Shown here in pieces: positions 6,430 to 57,207 of a DNA stretch of 64,000 nt; positions within the stretch are counted from its first letter, which is position 1, and every line of letters begins with the position of its first letter. The position numbers and the translations under genes were made by a program. The stretch comes from Octopus sinensis (Eukaryota), in contig NC_043002.1 in assembly GCF_006345805.1 (NCBI RefSeq), positions 7,502,001 through 7,566,000 of the forward strand, in the 5' to 3' direction. Below the pieces are notes generated by a model. That model saw only the letters and a list, made by a program, of their open reading frames with translations. It was not told the DNA's origin and made no database searches.

Positions 6430-6640
6430 GTTGAATTTTACAGAATTTTACAGAAAGAAAAACAAAAGACGAAAATTGCGTAAACAACAAACAGGTGTAT
6501 TAGTTTACCGCTCGGGAAGGTGAGAAAGTGTTTTACGCTTCGGGTCTATGCTCTTCAACAGAAAGGAACACGAGGAAGCAAACAGAGAGAGAATAAAACA
6601 AAACTTTCGGAGCTAGCGGTCGATCATGGCGGCTGGCTGG
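6430..6640 (-). mobile_element. Penelope-like terminal fragment (family P2) with a decayed hammerhead at 6530-6565
   Basis: Homologous to 10251-10458. Minus strand reads CUUU-CUGUUGA-A-GAGC-AUAG-ACCC-GAA-GCGU-A-AAAC, with stem II and A15.1 mutated. Flanked by (TA)n. Confidence 0.6.
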
Positions 6641-7079
6641 ACAAAGCATATATATATATATATATATATATAACCACTCACGCACGACGGGTTTCCACAC
6701 AGCTTCTATCTACTATATATACTCAAAAGGCACTGGTTGACCTGGAGTTATATAGTTGAAGACACATGCTCCTGGTGCTGCCTTGTGGGACTGAACCATA
6801 AACCGCACGGTTGCGAAGCGACTGTTCTTTTATATAATTTTTGTCGCCATTTTTGAATTGTTCTTTGGTTACTTTTTCTTGCTGTCTTGCTTTTTTCTTT
6901 TTTTCTTTTGTTATTGTCCACATAATTTGTACGTATTCTATTCTTCCCCCGTATTTCCCACGATCCGTACAACATCACCTCGCATCATCTTATATCCGCA
7001 CCGAGTTATTTACGGCATTCTCGCACCAAACGTTCGGCAGCAACACATTTTAAATAACGGAGAGTCTGTAGCTTTGTCG

Positions 7080-7255
7080 CGTGGAAGGTGTTTATAAGCC
7101 TTTTTAAGAAACACACAAAAACCGTTAGATTCACTTCAACATTTAAATTTAATTTGTCAAAATATTTTCGTCGCTTTGAGACCGCGACCTGTTCACTGAC
7201 AAAACTTCGTGCTGCACACGATCTCAGATCAAGTCACTCGCTATGCAAGTACATC
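7080..7255. mobile_element. Penelope-like insertion (family P1), two oppositely oriented pieces within one TSD
   Basis: Minus-strand piece 7080-7205 and plus-strand piece 7214-7255. 15-bp TSD tctgtagctttgtcg at 7065-7079 and 7256-7270. Confidence 0.75.
7153..7203 (-). ncRNA. Minimal type I hammerhead ribozyme motif, G3:C8 core variant
   Basis: Minus strand: UUUGUCA-GUGAACA-G-GUCGC-GGUCUCAAA-GCGAC-GAA-AAUAUU-U^UGACAAA. 7-bp stem I, 5-bp stem II, palindromic stem III. Confidence 0.8.
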
Positions 7256-7439
7256 TCTGTAGCTTTGTCGTTCTATAACAGTGATACACTTTAATGCCCG
7301 GAAATGAGCCTCGCAAAATGTTCAGCTGGACATAGTAAGTTTGTACTTAGTTAAGATTATGCTAATTAAGTAGATTTTTACTGAATTTGATATTTGCTTT
7401 TATTTGCTGGATCTGGAGGAAGCTGCATTATCCATGCAC

Positions 7440-7735
7440 TTCTCAGGCTTCCCTGGACGTAAGAGATTGATGTCATTGGAGTTCCTCCCGAACCTTTGTA
7501 AGTCAATACTAGCAGGAAAGACACGAGCAGGAAAGGAATGTCAAAAAGTCGTTCTTGGAAAGAAGTACAGGGAATTGAGTCTAGTGTAGGTTCTGATGAA
7601 TTGGTTACAATAAGGGTAATGAGAGAAACGGAAGAAGAGAATGCTTGCGTGGAGGCAGCATTACTCTAGTCAGCTCTGAAGAGCAGAGGACCTTACGGCA
7701 ACAGTAAAAAGACAAAGAGAGAAGGATAGTTAGTG
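7440..7735 (-). mobile_element. Decayed CR1/Jockey-type LINE ORF2 C-terminus
   Basis: Frameshifted translation SLCLFY..LCSSEL...YFFPRT..SFPARVFPASIDLQRF resembles the LINE terminal motif LSLFYRY..CSSEL...SFFPRT..LWNSLP..VFP...DL..FK. Confidence 0.6.
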
Positions 7736-8491
7736 GTTTTTGTCTTTCCTTTTTAAATAATTTGACTTACTTTTGACCTCGAACATTGGTTTTTGGTATT
7801 TGTCCAGCCTATATTAGTTGGACCACAAATGATATAAAATATTGTAGACAAAAACAGCTAAACAAATGAAGAACTTTGTGGAGTTTATTTCTAAAACGTA
7901 TTCTTGGGATCGTTGCGTCGGGCTTTAAATGTGATTTTTCTTATCTATATCCATCATTTCAGTCTTTCTAAAGATTATGCATAACATTTTTATGTCATTG
8001 CTAAGCTTTCCCAGTATTTTCAAAATATCTCTTGAATTTTTCTAGTCCCCCACATAAGAGGAGTAGTTCGCTGCCGAACGTATACTTCTAAATGCTTACA
8101 AGTCTCTCTCGTACCACTCACTCATTTCCGTTGTTGCCCACACACGACCCCAGCCGGAAGCCCAGTCAGTCTGAATACTCACTTTTGCCATCTGAATGGA
8201 CTGGAACAAGGAGAAGCTTTAAAGCGCTTGGAAAAATATTTTGCGTTTTTTTTTTACGGCTATATACGTTCTGAATTCAAATGCTGCCGAGGATAACTTG
8301 GCTTTTCAGCAGCTAAAACTCCTTCGAATTACACCCTGTGGTATTGGAAACGTAAATATTGAATAACATAGCTCTTAGATCCTTGCAAATTAAAAAAAGA
8401 AACCAGATGATTGCGAATGGAAGGACTTTGACCACTGTGTTGACCTGCACTTAAAGCACAAAAGCGACTACCTTCACTTCTACTACTACTA

Positions 8492-8723
8492 TAACTACTT
8501 CGATTGTTACCATATTTATTTTGAGATGCTCTGTGTTTCTTTCAATTACTTCAAATATAACAAAGAACTTAGTAAAATAATTTAGTTATTATTAAGCTAG
8601 TGTTAAGAATACTAGTTGTGACTAAAGTTTGGTGGAAGATTTTAATTTAGAATTTTTGAAAACAAGATATTTGTATCTCAGAACCAGAGCCGGTTTCAGC
8701 CGGGTTGGTAACGAAAGGGTTAA
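8492..8723. mobile_element. Possible piggyBac-type MITE
   Basis: Right end ggtaacgaaagggttaa (CCC plus TTAA terminus). The left end is only a degenerate match (taactacttcgattgttacc). No ORF. Confidence 0.45.
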
Positions 8724-8920
8724 CACGAACACCAAATCCAAACTGACGATCATCCACCACCACACACATGCCAGTTCGATTACTTCTGTTATTAAAAAGA
8801 AACATCATCATCAATCACCTTAACCAATACACAAGTAACGCAGTCCCAATTACTATACTTAAGCACTACTGCTCACACACACATCAACTGCCCCCACTGA
8901 TAGTAACACTCTGTAATACC

Positions 8921-54589: not shown

Positions 54590-54819
54590 GGCGGCGAGTT
54601 GGCAGAAAGGTTAGCGCGCCGGGCGAAATGCTTAGCAGTTTTCGTCTGCCGCTGCGTTCTGAGTTCAAATTCCGCCGAGGTCAACCTTGCCTTTCATCCT
54701 TTCGGGGTCGATAAATAAAAGTACCATTTTCGCACTGGGGTCGATGTAATCGACTTAATCCCTTTGTCTGTCCTTGTTTGTCTCCTCTATGTTTAGCCCC
54801 TCGTGGGCAGTAAAGAAAA
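54590..54819 (+). mobile_element. SINE family A monomer
   Basis: 19-bp TSD aatttc(a/c)tacagaatttta at 54570-54588 and 54820-54838. Confidence 0.94.
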
Positions 54820-54929
54820 AATTTCCTACAGAATTTTAGAGTTGAATTCTCTAATTAGGTGTTGCCTTCTACTTTTGTCGAATGGCTTTTAGTTTTCATT
54901 TTTATGTGAATATGTGTTATGAAGTTTAG

Positions 54930-55310
54930 TTCTAAACCACATGGTTCTGGGTTCGTTCTCACTACGTAGCACTTTGGTCTACTATAGCCCCAGACCGAAC
55001 AAACTGTTGAGAGTGGATTTCGTAGACGGAACACACGCGCACACACACACACACACACACAACACACACCTGTGTGTGTACATGTATTTATGAGCATGTG
55101 TATATCTCTGTGTCTGACTCCCAACTCGGATTGACAGACGATTATTGGTTTGTCTAAGTCCCCATAGCATAGTGGCAAGAAGAGATAGATAGACTAAATA
55201 CCAGTCTTAGAAAAAGAAATCAGAACTAGGGTTTATTTGTTCGACTAAAGCCTTTAAGGAGGTGTCCCAGGATGGCAGTAGTCTAATGACTGAAACAAGT
55301 AAAAGATATA
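54930..55310 (+). mobile_element. SINE family B, old diverged copy
   Basis: aaccacatggttctgggttc ... gtagacggaa ... tgactgaaacaagtaaaaga. Confidence 0.75.
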
Positions 55311-56045
55311 AGATTTCCTACGACATATTTTTCTTCAACTCTTCATTTCTGAAACGGCTTTTTCCCTTCCTTGCAATTAGGGGAAAGGGCTTTGGTCGAT
55401 TACGTCGCCCCAATAGTACTTCGTTTTATCGGCCCCGAAAGTATAAAAGGCAAAGTCAACCATGGCTGAGTTTGAACTCAGAACGTAAAAACAGACGAAA
55501 TGCCGCCAAGCATTTTGACTGGTGTGCTAATGTTTTGCTACCTCGCCACCTTAATAATAATAATCATATACACATACATACATACATACATACATACATA
55601 CATACATACATACATACATACATACATACATACATACATACATACATATTACACGAACACACGTACACACATACATACATATATATATGTCTATATATAT
55701 ATGTGTATGTATGTATGTATAGATAGATAGATAGATAGATAGATAGAGATAGATAGATAGATAGATGGATGGATGGATGGATGGATGGATGATGGATGGA
55801 TGGATGGATGGATGGATGGATGGATGGATGATAGATAGATAGATAGATAGATAGATAGATAGATAGATAGATAGATAGATAGATAGATAGATAGATAGAT
55901 GATGGATGGATGGATGGATAGATAGATAGATAGATAGATAGATAGATAGATAGATAGATAGATAGATAGATAGATAGATAGATAGATAGATAGATAGATA
56001 GATAGATAGATGGAGTTAAACGCAGCTGTTATTCAAATCATTTTA

Positions 56046-56132
56046 CTTCCGACATATGTTTCGAAGACAACATTGGTATTATTCCAAAGGAATAAAATGG
56101 TGTAAAATAATTTAATCGTCTCATCAGGAAAA
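56046..56132 (-). ncRNA. Type I hammerhead motif with canonical core and extended stem II
   Basis: Minus strand: UUUUC-CUGAUGA-GACGAU...(58-nt domain with hairpin UUAUUCC-UUU-GGAAUAA)...GUUGUC-UUC-GAA-ACAUAUGU-C^GGAAG. Confidence 0.7.
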
Positions 56133-56513
56133 GAAGGAAACCAAACGTCATCAGTAAGACATTATAACAGAATGTGTTAGATGTGTATAATGATGAACGG
56201 AACGCTATTAAGTTATTTAAAAAAAAACCGTTAGAAGATAAAACGCCAAAGGTAGCCTATAGAAAGAGAAGGGGTAAAGGAAAGAAATAAGCAGAAAACT
56301 AATAAAGGAGAAATATAGAGCGATATGGGAATTAGAATAAAAGCTTAAAGGCTTGGAAAAAGATATATCTAGTGGAATTGAAATGTGAGAAGAAAATCAA
56401 TGTTCAAATTATATATAATGGTAGATATCACTTATATGAACTAAAGGTATGTAAACAAGGGGAAATACACACATCCATATATATATATATATCTATATAT
56501 ATATATATATATA

Positions 56514-57207
56514 TGTAGGTCCCGGGTTGAGTCGGGGTTAACCACAGTAAATAAGGTACTCAATACATAGCAGAGTAAATTAATTTATTTTATAGAAGGA
56601 GCTTCTACAGGACTAGAACTGTTTCATTCAATGATTTTGAATGAAACAGTTCTAGTCCTGTAGAAGCTCCTTCTATAAAATAAATATATATATATATATA
56701 TAAAGCTATAGATATAGATACACACACACACGTATATATATATATACTTTATTAAAAAACATATTGCTCTACGTCTGGTATTAATTTTTTTTTACCATCT
56801 TGTTTCACATTTATGTGCTTACTCTGGTGTATATATATATATATATATATATATATATATATATATATATATATAATATATATATATATATATGTAGGTC
56901 CCGGGTTGAGTCGGGGTTAACCACAGTAAATAAGGTACTCAATACATAGCAGAGTAAATTAATTTATTTTATAGAAGGAGCTTCTACAGGACTAGAACTG
57001 TTTCATTCAATGATTTTGAATGAAACAGTTCTAGTCCTGTAGAAGCTCCTTCTATAAAATAAATATATATATATATATATAAAGCTATAGATATAGATAC
57101 ACACACACACGTATATATATATACTTTATTAAAAAACATATTGCTCTACGTCTGGTATTAATTTTTTTTTACCATCTTGTTTCACATTTATGTGCTTACT
57201 CTGGTGT
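56514..57207. repeat. 379-bp direct duplication of a PLE-like fragment (family P5) with a perfect 49-bp hairpin plus a P4 fragment
   Basis: Units start at 56514 and 56893. Hairpin arms are 56583-56631/56637-56685 and 56962-57010/57016-57064. Confidence 0.93.

Follow-up and report, generated by a model that had tools for sequence, protein, structure and literature searches.

Penelope-like elements (PLEs) carry minimal hammerhead ribozymes in their pseudo-long terminal repeats (pLTRs), and these motifs are reported to be spread massively through the genomes of animals (PMC4209133). According to that account, the minimal hammerhead is marked by an extra base after A9, a G10.1:C11.1 pair and a palindromic stem III; it occurs mostly singly, tied to truncated PLEs, with some opposite-strand pairs, and cleaves weakly as a dimer (PMC4209133). 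The pLTRs are described as 193–218 bp long, with head-to-head palindromes, a one-sided 31-bp tail, duplications of 8–10 bp and solo copies (PMC3846280), and a bias to (TA)n, inverted copies and a tail are reported for Naiad and Neptune (PMC8557442). In an anole PLE the hammerhead cuts 26 nt after the start codon, reverse transcriptase (RT) starts at 111–118 and a tail lies between two start sites; uncut RNA serves as the template and cleavage is not needed for insertion (PMC11167929). Retrozymes are reported to derive from PLE pLTRs (bioRxiv 10.64898/2026.07.22.740005). In Octopus vulgaris, 190 PLE families together occupy 6.83% of the assembly (PMC13282606), and the families treated here may already be annotated in the consensus library of that study. 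The window analysed here is a 64-kb stretch of Octopus sinensis DNA (NC_043002.1, positions 7,502,001–7,566,000; coordinates below are those of the window), in which short units with hammerhead motifs meet (TA)n microsatellites. With good confidence, we regard these units as 3′-terminal pLTR stumps of three or more Penelope-like families, ordinary PLE remnants of a kind already known.

An earlier note on this stretch had described several microsatellite-targeting repeat families that share one layout, a hammerhead followed after about 100 nt by a 3′ end fused to (TA)n. The layout is real. At each of the six named sites a hammerhead-like motif of type I, or at 56514 the 3′ half of one, points at (TA)n, and the predicted cut lies 104 nt (site 6430), 101 nt (10251), 112 nt (11197), 104 nt (37906), 114 nt (38801) and 101 nt (56514) from the junction. 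The distances given before were 4–10 nt too low at five sites and 4 nt too high at 56514; for the P1 family, taken as the copies at 159–318, 7082–7255 and 20832–21069, alignments give ~148 nt where ~145 nt had been read. A (TA)5 lies at 0 nt from 11 of 13 unit ends, a count that omits a local tandem duplicate (56894–57206) and is inflated, some of the end positions having been set visually at TA runs. Among 34,826 background samples, 0.44% have a (TA)5 no more than 3 nt away and 1.1% have one no more than 10 nt away, and only 2 of 55 outer ends of short interspersed elements (SINEs) in the window fall within 10 nt. At the unit ends of this window, (TA)n adjacency is thus well above the background. 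Firmer evidence comes from homologous copies that end at the same base beside TA (11197 and 37905; 38803 and 56829). Both misses among the 13 ends are P1 copies, so the statement that every 3′ end meets the microsatellite fits 11 ends and fails for two of the three P1 copies, which lie in non-TA DNA between direct duplications.

A conserved ribozyme-to-end spacing had been overstated. The six sites represent about two lineages and not six separate families, with 6430 paired to 10251, 11197 to 37906, and the 3′ parts of 38801 to 56514; because the sites are related in this way, the figure of ~100 nt rests on about two lineages. Short inverted arms end 31, 43, 78 and 84 nt after the cut and a candidate further unit at 56 nt, and across all arms and families the distance from cut to end spans 31–148 nt. 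Two ends recur in each of three families as a one-sided tail: 43 vs 114 nt in B1, 31 vs 101 nt in B2 and 78–84 vs ~148 nt in P1, whose inverted arms end at 78 and 84 nt. A spacing of ~85–92 nt plus a tail was already to be expected, because RT start sites have been mapped there in the anole PLE (PMC11167929). The earlier note had passed over the arms, the one-sided tails and the target duplications. Four insertions (38801, 56514, 7082 and 20832) have head-to-head inverted arms. Truncation or turning points cluster at the hammerhead (the copy at 37770, B1, B2, P1 at 159 and P1 at 20942), and three A copies start 80–93 nt before the core.

The B lineage displays the arms and tails most fully. 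In B1, the long arm with its tail (38803–38955, minus strand) has a hammerhead-like motif that lacks G10.1:C11.1, an AATAAA and 114 nt to (TA)14. Its short inverted arm (38983–39057, plus strand) differs from the long arm by 3 mismatches and stops at AATAAAG followed by (TA)7, and the two arms stand head-to-head across a (CATA)n spacer (38956–38982). B2 is a fold-back insertion (56515–56683) that lies between (TA)n runs and contains a 46/46-bp palindrome; of the hammerhead it retains just the GAAAC half, and the palindrome turns at ~56634, where stem II would be. After the presumed cut, the B2 long arm (minus) runs 101 nt and the short arm (plus) 31 nt. In B1 and B2, then, the short arm ends with its AATAAA against (TA)n, 43 and 31 nt past the cut, respectively, and the long arms continue for ~70 nt more. 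That additional piece also stands by itself: a tail-only fragment of the B1 family (56747–56829, plus strand) lies between (TA)n runs, shares its 3′ terminus with 38803 and has a left junction that reads AATAAAG|TA on the minus strand, as in the B1 short arm. The 3′ parts of 38801 and 56514 are related (0 of 500 shuffles as good). Beside them, 56894–57206 is a local tandem duplicate (99.4%) of 56515–56829, not an independent insertion, and was left out of the counts; in this region (56515–57206), a single (TA)n run holds two unlike PLE-type stumps, one stacked on the other, and the pair is duplicated as a 379-nt tandem (99.4%), which is either a recent duplication or an assembly artefact.

The A lineage consists of two families. 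In A1, the 218-nt unit at 6430–6647 (minus strand, (TA)n on both sides) keeps a decayed minimal hammerhead with core CUGUUGA and an A6U change, cut after 6534. The 209-nt unit at 10251–10459 (minus strand) has an intact minimal type I hammerhead with core CUGUAGA and the extra A, composed of a 4-bp stem II, GAAACGUU and a 5-bp stem I, and cut after 10352 before (TA)15. The two are 78% identical over 118 nt, and A6U is present in both. As a neighbouring observation, the unit at 10251 sits on the (TA)n that ends one copy of a ~390-nt SINE-like family. In A2, the unit of ~215–230 nt at 11197–11428 (minus strand) has an intact minimal hammerhead, core CCGACGA with U4C, cut after 11309; its 3′ side meets (TA)9 and its 5′ side merges into (ATGT)n. 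Next to this unit, 11024–11071 and 11104–11151 are moderately repeated, with joints between them in three runs, and are probably a decayed small repeat. The second A2 copy (37770–37905, plus strand) begins just before a hammerhead of core CUGACGA in which stem III and the cut site are decayed, reaches (TA)7 and has the same 3′ terminus as the 11197 unit. A1 and A2 have stem II and a downstream block in common. Their 3′ parts give mixed results against shuffles, one pair beating 498 of 500 and the other not (51 of 500 as good), and for their 5′ parts 128 of 500 shuffles are as good. No terminal direct or inverted similarity was found inside the A units.

P1 is represented by three copies. The copy at 159–318 (plus strand) starts approximately at the cut site, has a short inverted piece at its 5′ end and lies between (TA)n runs. 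The inverted insertion at 7082–7255 has a minus arm with the full hammerhead and a plus arm made of the 3′-terminal ~45 nt, flanked by a 15-bp direct duplication (7067–7081 and 7256–7270); that at 20832–21069 turns inside stem II and has 10-bp duplication-like flanks. The P1 hammerhead (7151–7205, minus strand) has a 7-bp stem I, core GUGAACA, an extra G, a 5-bp stem II and a palindromic AAUAUU stem III, and its fold scores z = −2.42 (7 of 200 shuffles as good). Its core carries G3 with C8, so that the partners of the core tertiary pair are swapped, in one copy only; two changes at exactly core positions 3 and 8 are unlikely as decay. A second G3:C8 copy was not found in pattern scans of prokaryotes and viral contigs. 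Six prokaryote matches to the P1 core pattern, and the 34 matches among viral-contig scans that returned 0, 0 and 34, were treated as chance, the best scoring below 18 bits against profile model R1. In the literature searched, which did not extend to the variant survey of Lunse et al., G3:C8 appears only as an engineered change (PMC3884650, PMC11167929), and the novelty of a natural G3:C8 core is not established. The C3G/G8C double change is reported to rescue the anole element partly (PMC11167929), U4C to be weak in vitro yet viable in a viroid (PMC3088659), and U3:A8 to be a core variant of PLE hammerheads (PMC4209133). The question of whether PLE hammerheads must cleave at all finds natural test cases in the G3:C8, A6U and U4C cores.

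The detection of these motifs varied in stringency. A strict hammerhead descriptor gives 3 motifs in the window (10379, 11335 and 20298), the last dismissed as chance; a relaxed one gives 6 against a mean of 2.2 per shuffled window (25 block-wise dinucleotide shuffles), with matches at 44353 and 60486 likewise dismissed. A PLE-type form (extra A, G10.1:C11.1, stem II of at least 4 bp), tuned after the copies had been seen, occurs twice in the window and once in all 25 shuffles. Thus, of the six sites at which hammerheads had been claimed, 10251 and 11197 pass the strict or relaxed descriptor unaided and the other four do not. The motifs at 6430 and 37906 are decayed and were recognised through homology, 38801 is without G10.1:C11.1 and 56514 keeps the GAAAC half only. 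The minimal type I design with an extra base after A9, G10.1:C11.1 and a palindromic stem III is present at 10251, at 11197 and in P1 at 7151–7205, and the A-group hammerheads are minimal, not canonical. An Rfam scan gave no hammerhead match; the microRNA matches that it returned are look-alikes driven by microsatellites. Searching the window with R1 returned only its four training copies and weak B1 matches, and no new copies. Two weaker candidates remain. A decayed A-like hammerhead (20752–20790, plus strand) lies just upstream of the P1 insertion at 20832, has an nhmmer E of 1.3 and does not fold. A single-copy 252-nt unit (38522–38773, plus strand) between two (TA)n runs has an AATAAA and a U3:A8 hammerhead-like motif at 38681, which folds no better than shuffles and may be chance; its cut lies 56 nt from the same (TA)n that B1 meets tail-to-tail.

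Related loci outside the window permit a comparison of helices. A pattern of only GAAGAGC-loop-GCTCGAAACGTT matched 35 metagenome loci, 14 of which have a C[UC]GAN core in front. A stem I of at least 2 bp is present in 12 of these 14 and in 6 of the 21 others, though the loci are not independent and several come from one family. Sixteen motifs were aligned, 4 from the window and 12 of 17 animal-like loci, with four near duplicates (L009, L015, L030 and L032) and a decayed one (L012) left out. All four stem I pairs change on both sides, with 18 covarying cells and 0 of 500 shuffles as high, a comparison of related sequences and not a probability; the helix covariation that the earlier note had made a test of its reading is thus found in stem I. 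One metagenome contig, likely host DNA, carries a near-complete, frameshifted PLE (locus L009, 1290–3629, minus strand) with an RT, a CxxCxxC linker, a GIY-YIG endonuclease, a hammerhead and an AATAAA. The RVT_1 match has E 5e-8, the GIY-YIG match E 2e-4, just under the gathering score, with Atlas neighbours GIY-YIG/HTH_animal, and the linker between the two domains is seen by eye only; a CX2–5CxxC linker in that position marks the Neptune clade of PLEs. The window-type hammerhead design thus lies downstream of an RT and GIY-YIG open reading frame (ORF). Five relatives (L007, L015, L018, L021 and L032) belong with L009, and the family has two termini after the cut, at 82 nt (L007 and L009) and at ~150 nt (L015 and L021). 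In a separate metagenome family, L029 and L030 have 63 nt in common after the cut.

The A2 family is very abundant. Contigs of four public runs from three organisms were placed on 10960–11428 (469 nt, with 11162–11242 excluded), 10,368, 18,624, 3,617 and 3,358 per run, and nearly all depth falls on the 11197 unit. In run X1 the depth sums to ~5.9 million over the hammerhead, whereas the single-copy flank has ~40; these figures are not a copy number. U4 accounts for ~22–26% of the depth at this hammerhead and C4 for the rest, so that A2 is mostly U4C. A lower CpG decay at C11.1/G12 and in loop III than in loop II was left unused, being too near the 5% listing cut-off.

Taken with published PLE anatomy, the minimal PLE-design hammerheads, head-to-head arms, one-sided tails, target duplications and (TA)n bias agree with the part of the earlier proposal that read the units as PLE termini. 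By analogy with other PLEs, an autonomous element elsewhere in the genome would supply the RT and the GIY-YIG endonuclease, which would nick (TA)n or other AT-rich DNA. On uncut RNA, RT would begin downstream of the hammerhead, at one fixed internal site or at two; a fixed start would set the 3′ end, and two start sites would yield termini with and without the tail. Synthesis would soon stop or fold back, at or near the hammerhead or ~80–90 nt upstream of it, which would leave stumps of 80–250 nt and head-to-head palindromes. The ~100 nt would then be a family-specific ribozyme-to-RT-start distance, inherited within two lineages, and no constant. The hammerheads would presumably cleave only weakly, as dimers, and decay is seen in many copies.

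Several observations weigh against an origin as PLE stumps. No RT or endonuclease sequence is linked to the A, B or P1 families: all 228 non-low-complexity reading-frame pieces of at least 55 amino acids in the window lack an RT or GIY-YIG Pfam match, which accords with the earlier remark that no family carries an ORF here. Outside the hammerhead motif, L009 has no similarity to the window (its protein pieces gave nothing by tblastn, best E 0.96), and the link is the hammerhead design only. Because the search pattern dictated stem II, that helix is uninformative on covariation; in stem I only 70% of cells pair, and its weak outer pairs form in 6 and 9 of the 16 motifs. Of 8 motifs folded, 7 do not exceed shuffles in stability. 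Hammerhead activity is uncertain because none of the intact motifs in the window has the consensus core: each carries A6U, U4C or G3:C8. Finally, the A-copy starts 80–93 nt upstream of the core look like a fixed 5′ boundary and not like random truncation.

The same starts speak for an alternative that we consider unlikely, namely that the A units are discrete non-autonomous elements of ~210 nt with both ends fixed, either solo-pLTR SINEs or retrozyme monomers. Such a unit would be transcribed on its own, perhaps circularised, and moved in trans by a PLE; the PLE origin would be kept, with the short unit as the thing that replicates. Three of the 4 A copies measure 209–232 nt, begin 80–93 nt before the core and are flanked on either side by microsatellite, and the 11197 family is, as noted, very abundant. 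In the four runs, loose ends, read over at most 30 letters, agree over ~25 further nt beyond 11385, after which the last letters differ, a weak hint. Animal retrozymes, moreover, are reported to derive from pLTRs and to occur as dispersed monomers (bioRxiv 10.64898/2026.07.22.740005). Against this, hammerhead monomers nowhere form a head-to-tail tandem array in the 64-kb window, and the A group has minimal motifs where those of coral tandem retrozymes are described as canonical (PMC7229834). On both counts, the retrozyme half of the earlier proposal finds no support within the window. The copy at 37906 begins at its hammerhead, the points of truncation or inversion vary among the B and P1 insertions, and solo pLTRs of such size are also a known PLE by-product (PMC3846280). 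Should the ~210-nt unit prove self-contained, it would form a clear intermediate step from pLTRs to retrozymes. A broader version strikes us as doubtful: a genome flooded with some 10^4–10^5 solo-pLTR mini-elements of ~210 nt, their ends set by transcript start and internal RT start, spreading as their own units, each family keeping a variant core, including the natural P1 G3:C8 swap so far known only as a laboratory rescue mutant. That the layout is a mere by-product, with chance hammerhead look-alikes amid microsatellites and (TA)n grown from A-rich tails of SINE or long interspersed element type, is hardly credible and largely refuted already by the end counts, covariation and alignments: simple repeats make up ~18% of the window, 14% of its positions have a (TA)5 no more than 150 nt away, shuffled windows give relaxed-descriptor motifs too and Rfam is silent, but SINE ends seldom touch (TA)5, homologous copies have exact common termini, stem I covaries, and the inverted arms and tails are left unexplained. 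Of the candidates, those at 38681, 44353 and 20752 may be explained in this way.

Around the PLE-type units, the window is 64% AT and contains three SINE-like families. The ~390-nt family (9826–10218, 14485–14817, 16180–16546, 24023–24408, 32940–33340 and 35878–36320, plus fragments) has an internal (TA)/(TG) microsatellite and a head that is tRNA-like by eye, in which ARAGORN finds no tRNA. The second (8915–9337, 30900–31320 and 33407–34012) is built of 2–3 head-to-tail copies of a 183–187-nt unit, which also occurs singly. The third, ~380 nt, joins 4645–5025, 17274–17658, 57394–57777 and 63366–63564 at 78–90% identity. A tandem repeat of 187 nt × 2.9 (47029–47564) has a GC content above its surroundings, and the hammerhead descriptors find none there. 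Inverted-repeat pairs of 65–80 nt and 78–95% identity surround microsatellite tracts at 36429–36681, 2504–3614 and 3097–3969, without a visible hammerhead; they are fold-back or resemble miniature inverted-repeat transposable elements.

Set against described systems, the units have most in common with the pLTRs of endonuclease-bearing PLEs (Cervera and de la Peña 2014, PMC4209133; Arkhipova et al. 2013, PMC3846280). Both have the minimal type I motif, the extra base after A9, G10.1:C11.1 and the palindromic stem III, and both consist mostly of single truncated copies and opposite-strand pairs, with a unit of ~200 bp, head-to-head palindromes, a one-sided tail and short target duplications (PMC4209133, PMC3846280). 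They differ in that no linked ORF is seen in the window and in that the B tail is ~70 nt long vs the published 30–40; the window cores are A6U, U4C and G3:C8, whereas U3:A8 is the variant reported in PMC4209133. The animal non-LTR retrozymes are likewise non-coding, 200–400 nt long, equipped with one type I hammerhead and derived from PLE pLTRs (PMC7229834; bioRxiv 10.64898/2026.07.22.740005), but they are defined by tandem arrays and circular RNA, and this window has no arrays. With Neptune and Naiad (Craig et al. 2021, PMC8557442) the units share the strong junction bias to (TA)n, which hides target duplications. In contrast, Naiads are described as lacking canonical hammerheads (PMC8557442), and P1 also inserts outside (TA)n; assignment of the window families to a clade would depend on their protein. 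The anole Poseidon element PAc (Frangieh et al. 2024, PMC11167929) has an ORF that starts within its hammerhead, whereas the 11197 copy has no ATG after it. PAc resembles the scheme proposed here in its fixed internal RT start sites, which as computed from the published positions lie ~85–92 nt after the cut, in the two start sites that define the tail and in its use of uncut RNA as template. The junctions in the window map likely RT start sites and fold-back points side by side in several families, and they extend in vivo what one lizard element showed in vitro.

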